DNA of 64,000 nt. Source: Enterovirga sp. (GTDB taxonomy: Bacteria > Pseudomonadota > Alphaproteobacteria > Rhizobiales > Beijerinckiaceae). The stretch's first letter is position 1. Each line of letters opens with the position of its first letter. Positions 8,788-15,470 of this stretch are shown piece after piece. The translations under genes and the position numbers were made by a program. The notes under the pieces are model-generated. The model searched no databases. It was not told where the DNA came from and saw only the letters and a list, made by a program, of their open reading frames with translations. Where the stretch lies: positions 5,166 to 69,165 of the forward strand of contig NZ_DAOLAJ010000005.1 of assembly GCF_035325185.1 (NCBI RefSeq), read 5' to 3'.

Positions 8788-9945
8788 TTACAGCTTCTCG
8801 ACCAGGACCGCCGAGCCGAGCCCGCCGGCCGCGGCGATCGCGGCGAGGCCGAGCGAGCCGGGAGGCGCCTCGCGCTCCATATCGGCCAGCAGCCGGACGA
8901 GGCTGACCGCGCCGGAAGCGCCGATCGGATGTCCGCGCGCGAGGCCGCCGCCGCCGCGGTTCAGGCATGCGGGTGCGATGCCCAGATCCGCCGCGAAGGC
9001 GAGAGCCAGGACCGCGAAGGCTTCGTGGACCTCGGCCCCCCAGAGCGCCGAGGAATCGCCGAGCAGCCGCGCAGCCGCCCGGGCGGCCCCCGCCATCGGC
9101 ATTTCCGGCGCGGTGCCGACCTGGACGCCGCCGCGCCAGCGGAACCGGGGCCGCGCGCCGAGGAGCGCCGCAGCGTCCGGCGCCGCGAGGAGGATGAAGG
9201 CCGCGCCGTCCGCCTGCGGGGCGATGGCGAGCCGGCTGACCGCATGCGCGCCCGGATCGGCGGCCGGCGCGGGCTCGTCCGTCACGGCCTCGACCGGCAT
9301 GCGCGCGGCGCGAACGGGGGTCAGGGCGCGGGCATAGCTGTCATGGTCCGCCTCGCCGATGGGGACGATCTCCCCCGCCATCTGCGCGCGGCCGGCGAGC
9401 GCCCGCTCGTGGCTGAGCCGGGCGAAGTCGTCCTGCGCCTCCCGCGAAATGCCCCGCCGCGCGGCATAGCGGGCGGCGGCGAGCAGCAGGTCGGGATCGC
9501 GCGCAGGATCGGGCGCGAAGGCCGGCCGCTCGTAGGACACCGGCGCCTCGCCGGCGTGGCGCGGGCGATGATGCCGCAGGGGCGAGCGGCTCCAGGCTTC
9601 GGCGCCCCCCGCCACGACCAGCCGGGCCTGTCCCGATGCGATCAGGCCGGCGCCGAGCGCGACGGCGTCCAGCCCCGAGCAGCATTGGGTATCGACCGAA
9701 AAGCCGGCGGTGCCGTCCGGCAGGCCGGCGGCGAGGGCGATCATGCGCGCCGGATTGCCGCCCGCGCCGAGCGCATTGCCGCAGACCACGGCGTCCACCG
9801 ACGCGGCCTCGACGCCGCCGCGCGCCAGCAGGGCCCGCACGACCGGCGCGCCGATCTCGTGGGCCGCAAGCGAGGCCAGGGCGCCGCCCCGCGGCGTCAC
9901 CGCACTGCGGGCCCAGCCGAGCAGCACCGGCGCATCCCGCCTCAT
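8788..9945 (-). CDS. Thiolase-family protein
   Basis: GNALGAGGNPAR, DTQCCSGL, HEAF, GHPIGASG. The start ATG at 9945 overlaps the upstream stop. Confidence 0.88.
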   Translation of the reverse strand: MRRDAPVLLGWARSAVTPRGGALASLAAHEIGAPVVRALLARGGVEAASVDAVVCGNALGAGGNPARMIALAAGLPDGTAGFSVDTQCCSGLDAVALGAGLIASGQARLVVAGGAEAWSRSPLRHHRPRHAGEAPVSYERPAFAPDPARDPDLLLAAARYAARRGISREAQDDFARLSHERALAGRAQMAGEIVPIGEADHDSYARALTPVRAARMPVEAVTDEPAPAADPGAHAVSRLAIAPQADGAAFILLAAPDAAALLGARPRFRWRGGVQVGTAPEMPMAGAARAAARLLGDSSALWGAEVHEAFAVLALAFAADLGIAPACLNRGGGGLARGHPIGASGAVSLVRLLADMEREAPPGSLGLAAIAAAGGLGSAVLVEKL

Positions 9946-11372
9946 GGAAGCGCAAGCCGCCAGGGCAGGATTCGCCAGCCCGGCGGTCCCTCGGGATGGG
10001 CCGCGAGCAGCCGCGCGAGGGCCGCGTGATCCGTCTTTCCGCTCACGGTGCGCGGCCAGCGATCGCAGACGAGGATGCGGCGCGGCGTCTTGTAGGGCTC
10101 GAGGCGCGCGCGGCACCACGCGGCCAATGTCGCGCGGTCGACGGGGGCGGCAAGCTCCAGCACCGCGACCGCCCGCAGGCCGCGCAGCGGGTCGGGCACA
10201 GCCTGGACCGAGACCGAGGCGACCGAGGGATGCGCGGCCAGGACGTGCTCCACCTCCTCGGGAAACAGGTTCTTGCCCTGCACGACGAACATGCGCTGGC
10301 GGCGCCCGGCGAGGTGAAGCAGGCCCTCGCCGTCGAGATGCCCCATGTCGCCGACCGATATCCAATCCCCGTCCCGCAGGAGCGCGGCGGGGCCATGGGC
10401 CGGCTCGGACGTCACGTAGCCCGTGAAGACCATGGGGCTGCGCACATAGATCAGCCCCGGCGCATGGTGGCCGGCACCCGGCGGCACGATGCGCAGCTCG
10501 ACATTCGCGAAAGGCCGCCCCACCGCCTCGGCCGGCAGGTCGGCCCGGCTGTCCGTCCAGGCGATGAAGCTGGTCTCGGAGGTGCCGTAGAACTCGACGA
10601 TGCGCGCATGGGGGAAGAGGGCCTGCAGGTGCGGCGTGCGCGCGCGGGGCCAGGGCGCGCCGCTGATCATCACGAGCTGTGTCGCCTCGACGGCGCGGGG
10701 GCCGTGGCGAGCGGCCTCCTCCAGCATCAGGATGAGCTGGCTCGGCACGGCGACGAGGCTTCGCGCATCGCCCCGCACGAGCGTCCGCAAGGCGGCACGG
10801 GCGGAGAAGCGCTGCTGGAGATGCGCGCCCACCCCGGTCCACAGGCCGAGCAGCGCGTTGAACAGGAACAGCGAATGCGAAAGCCGCCCCGGCGCCAGCA
10901 CCGGCGTGCGCACCGCCGGGCCGAAAGCGTCGATGCAGGCTTCGAAGCTCGTGGTCCACGAGCGGTGGCTGCGGATAAAGCCCTTCGGCATCCCGGTGCT
11001 GCCGGAGGTGAAGCCGATATAGAACGATCCCTCCGGCAGGGCCGGGGCGGCGAGCAGTCGCTCCGCGACCTCGCGGCGCAACTGCGCGGGCCAGTCGGGA
11101 TCGGCCACGGCGGCGACATGGCCCGCCGCCAGAATGGACAGGAATTCGACGAGCTGGTCGCCCGGTCCGAGTCCGGCATCGACCCACACGGCCCGGGGAG
11201 CGGGAGAGGCACCCTGAAAGGGGCCGGCGGCGACGCGCGCGGCCAGCTCCTCGAAGCTCAGGCGCAGCGTCCCGTCATCGATGGCCAATGCATCCGGCCT
11301 GCGCGCCGCCCAATGAGCCAGCGGCGCATGGACGCCAGGGCTCGGTTGCGCGTCCTCCCCCTTCCTCGTCAT
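9942..11372 (-). CDS. AMP-binding acyl-CoA synthetase/ligase
   Basis: FTSGSTGMPKG (A3), YGTSE (A5), GDMG (A7), SGK (A10). Start codon uncertain. Confidence 0.88.
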   Translation of the reverse strand: MTRKGEDAQPSPGVHAPLAHWAARRPDALAIDDGTLRLSFEELAARVAAGPFQGASPAPRAVWVDAGLGPGDQLVEFLSILAAGHVAAVADPDWPAQLRREVAERLLAAPALPEGSFYIGFTSGSTGMPKGFIRSHRSWTTSFEACIDAFGPAVRTPVLAPGRLSHSLFLFNALLGLWTGVGAHLQQRFSARAALRTLVRGDARSLVAVPSQLILMLEEAARHGPRAVEATQLVMISGAPWPRARTPHLQALFPHARIVEFYGTSETSFIAWTDSRADLPAEAVGRPFANVELRIVPPGAGHHAPGLIYVRSPMVFTGYVTSEPAHGPAALLRDGDWISVGDMGHLDGEGLLHLAGRRQRMFVVQGKNLFPEEVEHVLAAHPSVASVSVQAVPDPLRGLRAVAVLELAAPVDRATLAAWCRARLEPYKTPRRILVCDRWPRTVSGKTDHAALARLLAAHPEGPPGWRILPWRLALP

Positions 11373-11499: not shown

Positions 11500-12039
11500 T
11501 CAGGCGCGGAGCCTGGCTCCGTAGCGCTCATGAGCCTTCATGATCATCCCTTCCGCCTCGGCGGCGTCGCCCCAGCGCAGGATGCGGACCCATTTCCCCT
11601 CTTCGAGGTCTTTGTAATGGGTGAAGAAATGCTCGATCTGCTTCAGCGTGATCTCGGGCAGGTCCCGCGCCTGCGCGACGGCGTCGTAGCGGCGTGTCAG
11701 CCGGCGCGCCGGAACCGCGATGATCTTCTCGTCCGGCCCCGCCTCGTCCTGCATGACGAGGACGCCGACGGGACGGACCGCGATGACGGCCCCCGGGACC
11801 AGGGCACGGCTGTTGGCGACGAGGACGTCGCAAGGGTCTCCGTCCTCGGAGAGCGTGCGCGGCATGAATCCGTAATTGCCCGGATAGCGCATCGGCGTGT
11901 GGAGGAAGCGGTCGACGACGAGTGCGCCCGACGCCTTGTCGAATTCGTACTTGATCGGCTCCCCGCCGATGGGCACCTCGATGACGACGTTGACTTCCGA
12001 GGGAGCCTTCGCGCCGAGGGACAACGCTTCGAGGTTCAT
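11500..12039 (-). CDS. ppa: Family I inorganic pyrophosphatase
   Basis: [47 protein letters not shown]; GCAGGAG RBS upstream. Confidence 0.96.
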
Positions 12040-12104
12040 CACCCGATCTCCTGCTTCGGCCGATCGCCCACGCACAGGAATCCTGCACGCGGAGCGCGGC
12101 GTCC

Positions 12105-12151
12105 GTAGGAGTCATCAGCCGGAACGGCGGTTTCGGGGGAACCCCATCCCC
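12105..12151 (-). ncRNA. Fluoride riboswitch (crcB motif) leading ppa
   Basis: Minus strand reads GGGGAUGGGGUUCCCCCGAAACCGCCGUUCCGGCUGAUGACUCCUAC. P1 GGGGA/UCCCC, P2 GCC/GGC, pseudoknot GGGGU/ACUCC, conserved GAUG and GCUGAUGAC. Confidence 0.9.
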
Positions 12152-12161
12152 ATCACCCCGA

Positions 12162-12190
12162 AAGCTAGGCCGGGCCGGCCATCCGGTCAA
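12162..12190 (-). promoter_or_regulatory. sigma70-type promoter for the ppa riboswitch leader
   Basis: TTGACC-N17-TAGCTT on the minus strand, about 10 nt upstream of the aptamer. Confidence 0.65.
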
Positions 12191-12222
12191 TCCTTCGCAT
12201 GCTCCGTCACAGGGCGATCCCC

Positions 12223-12250
12223 TTGCGCTCCCGGCCTGCCGGCCTACATT
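12223..12250 (+). promoter_or_regulatory. sigma70-type promoter for the MutS-like operon leader
   Basis: TTGCGC-N16-TACATT, ending 6 nt before the first G of the aptamer. Confidence 0.6.
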
Positions 12251-12256
12251 CGGGGC

Positions 12257-12301
12257 GGGGATGGAGTCCCCCGATACGCCCCGTCCGCTGATGACTCCTG
12301 C
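12257..12301 (+). ncRNA. Fluoride riboswitch (crcB motif) leading the MutS-like pair
   Basis: GGGGAUGGAGUCCCCCGAUACGCCCCGUCCGCUGAUGACUCCUGC. P1 GGGGA/UCCCC, pseudoknot GGAGU/ACUCC, GCUGAUGAC core; P2 reduced to about 2 bp. Confidence 0.82.
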
Positions 12302-12345
12302 CTTTCCATTCGTGCGCCGCCCCACGGCGCCGAGGCAGGAGCGTC

Positions 12346-13968
12346 ATGAGGACCGACCTTTCCGATCCCCGTCCCCTCGCGGCCGAGCCCAGGCTCGATC
12401 CGGCCGATGATCGCGGCCTCTCTCTGGGCCCCGCGTTCCGCAGCGTCCTGTTCCCGCCGGGCCGCGAGCCCGCGCAGCCGGACGAGCGCGAGGCGCCCGC
12501 CTGCTTCGCGGACCTGAACCTCGACAAGGTGGTCTCGGCCCTGGCGGCCGGGCGCGACGAGGAGGTCCTGCGCCCGATCTTCCATACGCCCCGGCGGAGC
12601 GAGGAGATCGTCCGCTACCGGCAAGCCGTCTTCGGAGATCTCGAGCGGCCGGAGGTGTTTCGGGTCTTCCCGCCCTTCTGCGAGGCGATGCGCGCGGTCC
12701 GGGCGGATCTCGCCCAGGCCGGGAAGATCACCTGGCTCTGCCACAGGCACATGGTGATGCTGCGCGCGGCCGCGACCTATTGCAGGGCGCTCGGGGACCT
12801 GCTGGCCGGGCTCCGCCCGCTTCGCCTGCGTTCCGAAGGACTCGCGGGCTTCACCGCCTATCTGGGCGAATTCGCCACGTCCCCGGGCTTCCGGAACTTC
12901 TCGGCGGAGACGGCATCTCTCTGCCAGAAGCTGTTCGGCCTCGATTACGGCATGCTTTTCCGCGGCGACAAGGTCACGGTGCGCAAATATGCGGGCGAGC
13001 CGGATTACACCGTGTCGATCCGCGAGAGATTCGCGAGGTTCAGGGAGGCCGAGATCGAGCCCGCCTCCCCGAAGACGCGCAAGGGCGAGGCCGCGCTCAA
13101 CCACATCGAGGAGGGCATTCTCGAATTCGTGGGCCGGCTGTTTCCCGAGGAGTTCCGGCAGCTCGCGGATTACGCCCGGCGCCGCGGCTCCTTCATCGAC
13201 GAGACCGTGGCGCGGCTCGACCGGGAGATCGGCTTCTTCGTCGCCTATCTCGACTTCATCGCGCCTCTCCGGCAGGCCGGCCTGCCCTTCTGCCATCCCG
13301 AGGTCTCGACCTCGTGCAAGGAGACGGAGGTGTCCCGCGGCTTCGACCTCGCCCTGGCCGCGAAGCTCGTCGGCGAGAGGGCGCCGGTCGTCTGCAACGA
13401 TTTTCGCCTGTCGGGGCCCGAGAGGATGATCGTCGTGTCCGGCCCCAACCAGGGCGGCAAGACCACCTTCGCGCGCATGTTCGGCCAGTTGCACGTCCTG
13501 GCCGGGCTCGGCTGCCCCGTCCCCGGACGATCCGCCCGCCTCTTCCTCCCGGATGCGGTCTTCACGCATTTCGAGCGCGAAGAGGACATCGCGAACCTGC
13601 GCGGCAAGCTCGAGGACGAGCTGGTTCGCCTCCACGAGAGCTGCGAGGCGATGACGGCGAACAGCGTCGTCATCCTCAACGAGATCTTCAACTCGACGAG
13701 CCTCGACGACCAGGTCCTCCTCAGCCGGAAGATCCTCGACCGCATCCTCGCGGCCGATGCGATCGGCGTCTGCGTGACCTTCATCGACGCGCTCTCCACG
13801 CTGAGCGGGAAGACCGTCAGCATGGTCGCCGCGGTGCACCCCGAGGATCCCGCGCGCCGGACCTTCGAGCTGGTGCGCCGGCCCGCCGACGGGCTCGCCT
13901 ATGCGCTGTCGCTCGCGCAGGCGCACGGCGTCACCTACGAGCGCCTGCGCGAGAGGGTCCGGCCATGA
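12346..13968 (+). CDS. MutS-related ATPase (C-terminal domain V type; no recognisable mismatch-binding or Smr domain)
   Basis: VCNDFRLS..ERMIVVSGPNQGGKTT (Walker A), FTHFERE, VILNEIFNST, C-terminal YALSLA..HG helix-turn-helix. Confidence 0.85.
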   Translation: MRTDLSDPRPLAAEPRLDPADDRGLSLGPAFRSVLFPPGREPAQPDEREAPACFADLNLDKVVSALAAGRDEEVLRPIFHTPRRSEEIVRYRQAVFGDLERPEVFRVFPPFCEAMRAVRADLAQAGKITWLCHRHMVMLRAAATYCRALGDLLAGLRPLRLRSEGLAGFTAYLGEFATSPGFRNFSAETASLCQKLFGLDYGMLFRGDKVTVRKYAGEPDYTVSIRERFARFREAEIEPASPKTRKGEAALNHIEEGILEFVGRLFPEEFRQLADYARRRGSFIDETVARLDREIGFFVAYLDFIAPLRQAGLPFCHPEVSTSCKETEVSRGFDLALAAKLVGERAPVVCNDFRLSGPERMIVVSGPNQGGKTTFARMFGQLHVLAGLGCPVPGRSARLFLPDAVFTHFEREEDIANLRGKLEDELVRLHESCEAMTANSVVILNEIFNSTSLDDQVLLSRKILDRILAADAIGVCVTFIDALSTLSGKTVSMVAAVHPEDPARRTFELVRRPADGLAYALSLAQAHGVTYERLRERVRP

Positions 13969-15470
13969 AGACCTTCCTCATGCATCCCGGCCGCGACTTC
14001 GAAACGGAGCCGGCCTCGACGGCCTCGAAAGAGTCCCTCCCCTTCGCCCAGGATATCGAGCTGGACGTCCTCCTGGACGCCGCGGCTTCCGGCGACCGCT
14101 TCCTGCGGGAGATCATGTCGGCGGCCTGCGCCCGCGCCTGGACCAACGACATCGCCACGATCCGCTATCGCCAGGAGATCCTGAAGGATTGCCTCGCCAA
14201 TCCGGGCGTCGTCCGGGGCCTCTACGCCCTCGCCCTCGAGCCGTTCAGCCGCGAGCATAGCTGGAATTTCAGCCTCTACGGCCGCGATGCCGCCGTGATG
14301 GTCTCCAGCGGCGTGCGGACGCTCCAGGTCAGCCTCGACGTCCTCGAACGGCTCCGCAATCTCTGCCGCGACAACGCGGACCGCTTCGCCTCGCCCGGCT
14401 TCCGCCAGTTCTTCGCGACGCTCGAACGGAACCTCGACGACGCCTATCTCGCCGCCGCGCGGACCGATCTCGACACCCTGACCTTCCGCCACGGCCTTCT
14501 GCTCAGCGCCCGGCTCGGGGAAGGCGGCAAGGGCGTCGGGACGATGCTGCGCAAGCCCCAGAAGCGGGACCTGAACTGGATCGACCGGCTCCTCACGCCC
14601 GGGGCGAGGAGCTTCACCTTGCAGCTCCATCCCCGCGACGAGGCCGGGGCGCAGGCCTTCGCGGAGCTGGAAGGCCGGGGCCTCGTGCTCATCTGCGACG
14701 CGGTCTACGAATCCGCCGAGCACGTCCTCGGCTTCCTGAAGGCGCTGCGGGCGGAACTCGCCTTCTATCTCGGCGGCCTCAACCTGAAGGAAAGCCTCGA
14801 CCGGATCGGCGAGACGGTCGCCTTTCCCGATCCGCAGGCCGAGCGCGGCCGCTTCCACTGCCGGAACCTGCGCGACGCATGCCTCGCCCTGACGATGGAG
14901 AAGCCGGTCGTCGGAAACGACGTCGCCGCGGACGGCAGGCCGCTCGTGATCGTGACCGGGGCCAATCGCGGCGGCAAGTCGACCTTCCTGCGGAGCGTGG
15001 GCCTCGCCCATCTGATGATGCAATGCGGCCTGTTCGTCACGGCCGAGTCCTTCTCGGCCTCGCTGCGCTCCGGGCTCTTCACGCATTGCAAGCGGGAGGA
15101 GGACCGCAGCATGCGCAGCGGAAAATTCGACGAGGAACTGGTCCGCATGAGCGCGATCGCGGACGAGATCCGCGAGGGGGCGCTCGTCCTCTTCAACGAA
15201 TCCTTCGCCGCCACCCACGAGCGGGAGGGATCGGAAATCGCCCGGCAGATCGTCTCGGCCCTGCTGGAGCGGAACGTCACGGTCTTCTTCGTCTCGCACA
15301 TGCACGCCTTCGCCCGCTCCTTCCTGGAGGACGGGCGAACCCTGTTCCTGCGCGCCGAGAGAGGGGAGGAAGGCCGCAGGACCTTCCGTCTCCGGGAAGG
15401 CGCGCCCGAGGCGAAAAGCTTCGGCGCCGATCTCTACCGGCGCATTTTCGAGCAGCCCGCTGCCATCTGA
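13965..15470 (+). CDS. Second MutS-related ATPase, translationally coupled to the first
   Basis: ATGA overlap. VVGNDV..DGRPLVIVTGANRGGKST, GLFVTAESF, LFNESFAAT, VSH. Confidence 0.85.
   Translation: MKTFLMHPGRDFETEPASTASKESLPFAQDIELDVLLDAAASGDRFLREIMSAACARAWTNDIATIRYRQEILKDCLANPGVVRGLYALALEPFSREHSWNFSLYGRDAAVMVSSGVRTLQVSLDVLERLRNLCRDNADRFASPGFRQFFATLERNLDDAYLAAARTDLDTLTFRHGLLLSARLGEGGKGVGTMLRKPQKRDLNWIDRLLTPGARSFTLQLHPRDEAGAQAFAELEGRGLVLICDAVYESAEHVLGFLKALRAELAFYLGGLNLKESLDRIGETVAFPDPQAERGRFHCRNLRDACLALTMEKPVVGNDVAADGRPLVIVTGANRGGKSTFLRSVGLAHLMMQCGLFVTAESFSASLRSGLFTHCKREEDRSMRSGKFDEELVRMSAIADEIREGALVLFNESFAATHEREGSEIARQIVSALLERNVTVFFVSHMHAFARSFLEDGRTLFLRAERGEEGRRTFRLREGAPEAKSFGADLYRRIFEQPAAI

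Follow-up and report, generated by a model that had tools for sequence, protein, structure and literature searches.

The 64-kb stretch of DNA analysed here, referred to at its full length as the window, contains an intergenic region at 12040-12345 from which a pyrophosphatase gene (ppa) is read on the minus strand and a pair of MutS-like genes on the plus strand. Each of the two leaders contains a match to the fluoride riboswitch family. The genes and aptamers, in window coordinates, are the following:

11500-12039, minus strand: ppa, family I inorganic diphosphatase of 179 codons (PF00719, 187.7 bits; NF002317, 263.5 bits against a cut-off of 200)
12099-12160, minus strand: aptamer 1, canonical (P1, 4-bp P2 and pseudoknot), in the ppa leader (RF01734, 57.8 bits, E = 2e-13)
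12248-12307, plus strand: aptamer 2, short-P2 variant (GC, 7 nt, GC), in the leader of the MutS-like operon (RF01734, 35.8 bits, E = 3.2e-06)
12346-13968, plus strand: MutS-like ATPase 1, MutS4A-like, 540 aa, domain V only (PF00488, 54.1 bits)
13965-15470, plus strand: MutS-like ATPase 2, MutS4B-like, 501 aa, from translation (PF00488, 66.9 bits)

The family matches agree with the neighbours named in an initial annotation of this DNA, a ppa gene (12039-11500, minus strand) and a MutS-like gene (12346-13968, plus strand). The start of ppa lies 59 nt, and that of the first MutS-like gene 38 nt, downstream of the respective RF01734 match, and the NF002317 equivalog match spans residues 1-173 of the 179 residues of the pyrophosphatase. 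The annotation had placed one mutS-like gene behind the plus-strand switch. This first gene stands, and it is followed by a second one, an overlapping paralog at 13965-15470 whose start overlaps the stop of the first (ATGA, 13965-13968). The two proteins are 24% identical over their full length, and the reading frame of the second is backed by GC3 phase analysis. In both proteins MutS domain V (PF00488) is the sole family match, with neither the mismatch-binding domain I nor Smr, and in the PDB their sequences match MutS, MutS2 and MSH proteins over the ATPase domain only. The two genes are adjacent in 80 related loci wherever the contig is long enough, the exceptions being L085, which is without a full match to the second gene, and L075, where the second gene lies upstream. 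In domain content and gene arrangement the pair fits the published description of MutS4A and MutS4B, MutSac-only proteins encoded by adjacent genes in which the stop of A overlaps the start of B, with a patchy distribution suggestive of horizontal transfer and with unknown function (Lin, Nei and Ma 2007, PMC2190696). The likeness, which covers ATPase-only proteins, adjacent overlapping genes and patchy spread, was drawn from the description, and the paper draws no connection between the pair and fluoride. Elsewhere on the minus strand of the window, a 799-codon frame (8788-11187) has a thiolase (Thiolase_N/C) as its C-terminal half and an N-terminal half of ~400 residues with no family match, and may be either a fusion or two genes. 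Thiolases of the genus are only 34-36% identical to this frame and cover its C-terminal half.

The crcB RNA motif, reportedly established as a fluoride riboswitch by Baker et al. in 2012, corresponds to Rfam family RF01734 (Fluoride), which has a gathering score (GA) of 34 bits. When the whole 64-kb window was scanned with cmscan against all families of Rfam 15, exactly two matches above GA were obtained, both to RF01734, and both recurred in a whole-genome search with this model (per-genome E of 2.9e-15 and 4.5e-8). The initial annotation had proposed back-to-back fluoride riboswitches, one per strand, with cores at 12151-12105 (minus) and 12257-12301 (plus), and had suggested checking them with the covariance model; this check places both strands above GA and both cores inside the matches. 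The 5' ends of the two matches have 87 nt between them. The plus-strand aptamer exceeds the threshold by 1.8 bits only. With R1, a covariance model built in this analysis, the minus aptamer scored 63.1 bits and the plus aptamer, itself a member of the R1 training set, 56.5 bits.

P1 consists of 4 bp in both aptamers (GGGG/CCCC) and closes the conserved GAUGGNGU loop, which has the form GAUGG(G/A)GU and reads AUGGGGUU in the minus and AUGGAGUC in the plus aptamer; GCUGAUGACUCCU is likewise present in both. The pseudoknot comprises 5 bp on either strand, GGGGU/ACUCC with one G.U in the minus aptamer and GGAGU/ACUCC in the plus aptamer. The P2 helix of the minus aptamer has 4 bp (GCCG/CGGC), the family consensus being ~4 bp before CUGAUGA. 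In the plus aptamer P2 is reduced to 2 bp, GC/GC round a 7-nt loop, as the initial annotation had observed, and the J1/2 junction is 2 nt shorter. With the fluoride riboswitch family both elements share P1, the conserved loop, the pseudoknot and the 3' CUGAUGACUCCU. Among 55 aptamers collected in this analysis and aligned as A2, P1, pseudoknot and P2 together are 92% paired with 91 double-change cells, a level reached by 0 of 500 shuffles; the pseudoknot helix is 99.6% paired and has three covarying pairs, and covariation is also present in P1. These comparisons support the view that both sequences are real fluoride-riboswitch aptamers that face outward into two transcription units, so that fluoride should induce genes in both directions. 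To call this a bidirectional fluoride-sensing hub goes too far: nothing suggests a coupling of the two sides, which are two independent cis-acting leaders in a common intergenic region.

The aptamers also form an inverted repeat with each other, with 79% identity over ~60 nt in a self-match. A recent inverted duplication was considered as the origin of the pair and rejected, each aptamer being closer to the aptamers of its own gene class than to its partner.

The elements predicted between the aptamers and the start codons, and upstream of the aptamers, are as follows:

12037-12118, minus strand: predicted expression platform of ppa (ViennaRNA MFE folds)
12288-12348, plus strand: predicted expression platform of the MutS-like operon (MFE fold; RNAalifold consensus of 12 loci)
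12162-12190, minus strand: weak promoter-like hexamers in the ppa leader, TTGACC, 17 nt, TAGCTT (8/12 matches in a loose scan)
12223-12250, plus strand: weak promoter-like hexamers in the MutS-like leader, TTGCGC, 16 nt, TACATT (7/12 in a loose scan)

In the MFE fold of the ppa leader, computed from 12165, CUGAU..CUCCU (12118-12107) pairs with AGGAGAUCGG (12052-12043), 8 nt before the AUG at 12039-12037; the paired stretch includes the Shine-Dalgarno sequence AGGAG (12052-12048), and a stable hairpin is predicted between the pairing strands. When the leader is cut at P1 the fold differs in detail, and the Shine-Dalgarno region is still paired. This platform is not kept in the two other aptamer-led ppa leaders that were found (L104 and L125). 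In the MFE fold of the plus-strand leader, the aptamer 3' strand at 12288-12302 (UGAUGA.CUCCUGCC) pairs with GGCAGGAG (12334-12341), the Shine-Dalgarno sequence, and also with CGUCA.G (12342-12348), which takes in the AUG at 12346; the two strands of this sequestering helix are separated by a hairpin at 12310-12333. In each leader the Shine-Dalgarno/AUG region has its complement in the 3' strand of the aptamer (UGAUGACUCCU...), and a promoter/terminator scan of the two leaders returned no hairpin with a U tract that resembles an intrinsic terminator. On these two grounds the folds point to both leaders as likely translational ON switches.

The folding energies of the plus-strand leader bear on how such a switch could operate. 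Its MFE is -51.6 kcal/mol, compared with -30.5 kcal/mol under a constraint that enforces the aptamer, to which the pseudoknot adds about -5.4 kcal/mol, and the OFF helix is predicted to exceed the aptamer fold in stability by ~15-20 kcal/mol. With a gap of this size switching would have to be kinetic, that is, co-transcriptional, or else the plus switch would be poorly inducible. A co-transcriptional decision of this kind would also fit a mechanism that acts mainly on transcription or mRNA stability, for example through Rho-dependent termination or RNase access in the untranslated leader, rather than on translation initiation itself. Of the fluoride riboswitches characterised so far many control transcription, terminators overlapping the motif were noted in its description (Weinberg 2010, PMC2864571), and a block in translation often leads to secondary Rho termination. 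However, in both leaders the alternative helix covers exactly the Shine-Dalgarno sequence and the AUG, and a terminator-like hairpin with a U tract is found in neither, so we consider such a mechanism unlikely, while granting it a real chance, and prefer translational control by sequestration of the ribosome-binding site. As to the promoters, a strict consensus scan of the leaders found none, and a loose scan of 12140-12270 returned only the two hexamer pairs listed above, one per strand. If these are used, transcription would start a few bases before the respective P1.

As another check, the initial annotation had suggested a search of other genomes for the combination of ppa and a mutS-like gene behind divergent switches. 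This exact layout was absent from 80 MutS-like loci from genomes and 80 ppa loci from metagenomes. The more general arrangement does recur. An aptamer was located within 450 nt upstream of the MutS-like pair in 55 of the 80 loci by nhmmer with a sequence-only profile, and in ~62 of the 80 by a hand count of matches to R1, a model to which many of these same loci had contributed. Pairs of aptamers that face outward and lie within 350 nt of each other were found at 8 loci by nhmmer and at 16 of 81 by R1, with the window counted; the divergent pairs are those of L022, L027, L028, L039, L052, L053, L072, L084-L086, L088 and L090-L093. Like the window, these loci have two outward-facing aptamers, one of which leads the MutS-like pair, whereas the partner gene differs and is ppa only in the window. 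The divergent partners comprise crcB with DUF190 (L091), enolase (L092), a Na+/H+ exchanger (L052, L086 and L090), a complex-I-like NADHdh protein (L028, L085 and L088), an MFS protein (L084), His_Phos_1 (L027) and DUF6062 (L093). These are classic fluoride-regulon genes, and the context supports even low-scoring aptamer matches. Of 150 genomes drawn at random at the class level, 15 have the motif, and none has a pair as close as that of the window.

The recurrence also bears on whether the inverted repeat might act as DNA, for example as a palindromic operator for divergent promoters, with the likeness to riboswitches being incidental. The identity of 79% between the arms is what such an operator would offer, but each arm independently matches a structured covariance model, each is more similar to same-class aptamers from other genomes than to the opposite arm, and the spacing of paired aptamers varies from ~40 to 300 nt across loci. 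We regard a DNA operator as extremely improbable and treat the two arms as separate RNA elements.

Several other loci came to light in these searches. In the class-level sample, another genome of the same class packs three fluoride aptamers, two of them plus-strand and one minus-strand, into 2.4 kb (G155:C165:22841-25206), which looks like another multi-switch fluoride island. The closest homolog of the window ppa, with 75% identity, is that of L104 and is itself aptamer-led. This metagenome contig (OFJB01001357.1) has four fluoride aptamers in 3.6 kb (L104:1843-5416), a dense fluoride island in which a back-to-back pair lies between a dynamin-like gene and a short frame, one aptamer precedes ppa and one precedes a NUDIX gene. 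Very divergent ppa genes are located on the same strand as, and within ~3 kb of, MutS-like pairs at L064:3992-6140, L056:917-1411 and L061:23-508. These same-strand genes come from three distant phyla, and ppa and the MutS4-like pair thus co-occur repeatedly, though not in the divergent layout.

The plus copy had been singled out from the start as the weaker candidate. This holds for its score, 35.8 bits, and does not hold for its short P2, which is a conserved variant of a clade with a conserved expression platform. A pattern search in the loci of the MutS-like relatives detected the short-P2 form in L017, L018, L020-L025, L027, L028 and L030, and it is also present in L104. Twelve short-P2 leaders were aligned from aptamer to start codon (alignment A1), and 12 of 12 have the same architecture: aptamer, CUCCUGCC, GC-rich hairpin, GGCAGG and AUG. 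The RNAalifold consensus of the 12 loci recovers the helix between CUCCUGCC and GGCAGG. In A1 the ON fold is 90% paired, compared with 44-56% in slid controls, and the OFF fold has 82.5% of its cells paired, compared with 31-56%. No covariation was detected within the 12 leaders and shuffle controls were not exceeded; every paired position is invariant, so what A1 contributes is conservation only. Scored against RF01734 in Rfam E-value mode, the relatives of the plus aptamer reach 23.2-34.0 bits, and the plus aptamer of the window stands at the top of a clade that is mostly under the threshold.

A marginal score (35.8 bits against a GA of 34), a P2 of 2 bp and close relatives that fall below GA are what one would expect of a decayed, non-functional aptamer relic, with the MutS-like operon otherwise regulated or constitutive. 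Yet the core nucleotides, the pseudoknot strands and the anti-Shine-Dalgarno/Shine-Dalgarno helix are invariant in the 12 loci, in leaders that vary elsewhere (mean column identity of 77%), and in a relic the two competing pairings would not both have been retained. Moreover, an aptamer precedes the MutS-like pair in the majority of the 80 loci, in different phyla. This makes decay very unlikely, and judged by its conservation the plus aptamer is probably an intact element with a 2-bp P2 as a conserved variant, and a putative fluoride binder.

Conservation of the variant raises a different question, namely whether it has a changed ligand, affinity or kinetics, in which case the two switches would answer different signals or different fluoride thresholds. 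The structural difference, a J1/2 2 nt shorter and a 2-bp P2, is conserved and is tied to particular genes, since the variant precedes, besides MutS-like genes, genes for dynamin-like GTPases (L020:954-2912, L025:23-1835 and L104:89-1901). Variant subclasses with changed specificity exist in riboswitch families other than fluoride. Against this, the family-conserved nucleotides (GAUGG.GU and CUGAUGACUCCU) are unchanged, and in other phyla the same gene pair is preceded, and would be controlled, by canonical aptamers of 48-55 bits, which argues that the short-P2 variant still senses fluoride. We find a switch with an altered response rather unlikely and take both aptamers to be responsive to fluoride. 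The dynamin-like GTPases of the three loci are ~570-600 aa long and have Dynamin_N together with a weak match to DUF6062; in L020 the dynamin-like gene is followed by the MutS-like pair.

A more specific version can be put forward as a speculation to which we attach a low, though not trivial, probability: the short-P2 form would be a distinct alphaproteobacterial subclass, tied to MutS4-like and dynamin-like NTPases and mostly below the Rfam threshold, with a different affinity or kinetics, and the region studied here would combine two thresholds. If this were true, the two thresholds would amount to early enzyme replacement by ppa and a later damage response by the MutS4 pair. A sub-threshold variant also means that the Rfam gathering score under-counts fluoride riboswitches in Alphaproteobacteria. 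Conserved fluoride-aptamer variants that fall short of the gathering score of RF01734 also make up a cluster described in a 2026 preprint (bioRxiv 10.64898/2026.10.21.760802). Those variants lie next to crcB and reach no more than 28.9 bits, whereas the variant described here leads MutS-like and dynamin-like genes of Alphaproteobacteria, with scores of 23-36 bits.

Profile searches found no CrcB or CLC gene in the window, in agreement with the initial annotation, which had reported no CrcB/Fluc or CLC exporter there. The step taken from this, that the regulated genes serve damage mitigation rather than export, fails when the whole genome is considered (assembly of 3.87 Mb, 92.7% complete). The only CRCB match of the genome is on another contig, no Voltage_CLC match was found in the genome, and the whole-genome RF01734 search returned a third fluoride riboswitch at G000:C3:36866-36928 (54.8 bits). 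Behind it lies a complex-I/hydrogenase-like operon (L005:1867-10078, equivalent to G000:C3:36866-45077) with the subunits NADHdh, a 49/30 kDa fusion, a 20 kDa subunit with Fer4, and Proton_antipo_M, which ends in crcB followed by DUF190. The window holds the mitigation, non-export branch of a regulon that also includes export. No enolase (PF00113) match was obtained in the assembly, while one is present in 14 of 14 control genomes; the assembly therefore lacks at least that region, and further riboswitch-led genes could be unassembled.

The genome has a second ppa copy, on G000:C100, which is 71% identical to the window copy. A ppa tree groups the C100 copy with those of the genus (support of 100/99), to which it is 82-89% identical, and puts the ppa of the window outside this clade, beside the aptamer-led genes of L104 and L125, the latter placement without resolved support. 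A search of 40 relatives, 14 of them from the same genus, found the MutS-like gene in none. In these 14 genus mates RF01734 gave two sub-threshold matches and none over threshold, and synteny was restricted to the ppa coding region (75-78%), so that the borders of an insertion are not definable. The GC content of the region does not differ from its surroundings and gives no island signal. From its relationships, the ppa of the window is best classed as an accessory second copy, and the ppa/MutS-like module as accessory and, judged by its distribution, probably acquired by transfer. Among the genus relatives (G001-G014) 11 of 14 have crcB, which may be constitutive there or led by a divergent, sub-threshold aptamer.

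Taken together, we think it highly probable that the region contains two independent outward-facing fluoride switches of the translational ON type, one for ppa and one for a MutS4A/B-like pair, that these genes form an accessory module, and that the module belongs to a three-switch regulon. In this scheme the intergenic region at 12040-12345 would hold both switches, and each leader would begin with its aptamer or immediately upstream of it. As long as fluoride is absent, pairing between the 3' half of the aptamer and the Shine-Dalgarno/start-codon region would block translation initiation. Fluoride, bound together with Mg2+, would lock ACUCC into its pseudoknot pairing to the P1 loop and free the ribosome-binding site. 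The minus switch would then yield more of an accessory family I pyrophosphatase, an enzyme class inhibited by fluoride, and the plus switch more of the translationally coupled pair of MutS-domain-V ATPases. These two switches and the third one, in front of the crcB/DUF190 operon, would make up the fluoride regulon of the organism.

Much of this follows what is known of the family. The crcB motif has been described upstream of mutS and formate hydrogen lyase genes (Weinberg 2010, PMC2864571), both elements occupy 5' leaders whose genes (mutS-like and pyrophosphatase) are among those previously listed for the fluoride riboswitch, and the predicted ON logic is alike in that the aptamer 3' strand is common to the alternative helix. 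The platforms predicted here differ in that they sequester the Shine-Dalgarno sequence and AUG and are not intrinsic terminators, and the plus copy departs by its 2-bp P2 and shorter junction. A comparable system is the fluoride-resistance operon of Enterobacter cloacae FRM, in which one fluoride riboswitch leads one six-gene operon, ppaC-uspA-eno-gpmA-crcB-orf5249, and induces ppaC ~100-fold (PMC5533749). Both cases involve a riboswitch-led extra pyrophosphatase, inhibited by fluoride, in accessory DNA, which in E. cloacae is a genomic island. The E. cloacae enzyme is PpaC (family II by name) and that of the window a family I Ppa, and here ppa stands alone behind its own switch with the exporter on another contig. 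Thus, the associations with mutS and pyrophosphatase genes are already published, the back-to-back layout recurs widely, and nothing departs from the logic of the family. Specific to this locus are ppa as the divergent partner, the predicted sequestering platforms on both sides, and the presence of a canonical aptamer 87 nt from a minimal-P2 one.

With these two aptamer types side by side in one 300-nt region, each with a simple predicted platform that sequesters the Shine-Dalgarno sequence and AUG, the locus offers a compact test case for comparing affinity and switching. The survey gives further grounds for counting the MutS4A/B ATPase pair among the core members of the fluoride regulon, with an aptamer directly upstream in 55 to ~62 of 80 loci from many phyla, and this orphan family thereby gains a testable inducer, fluoride.
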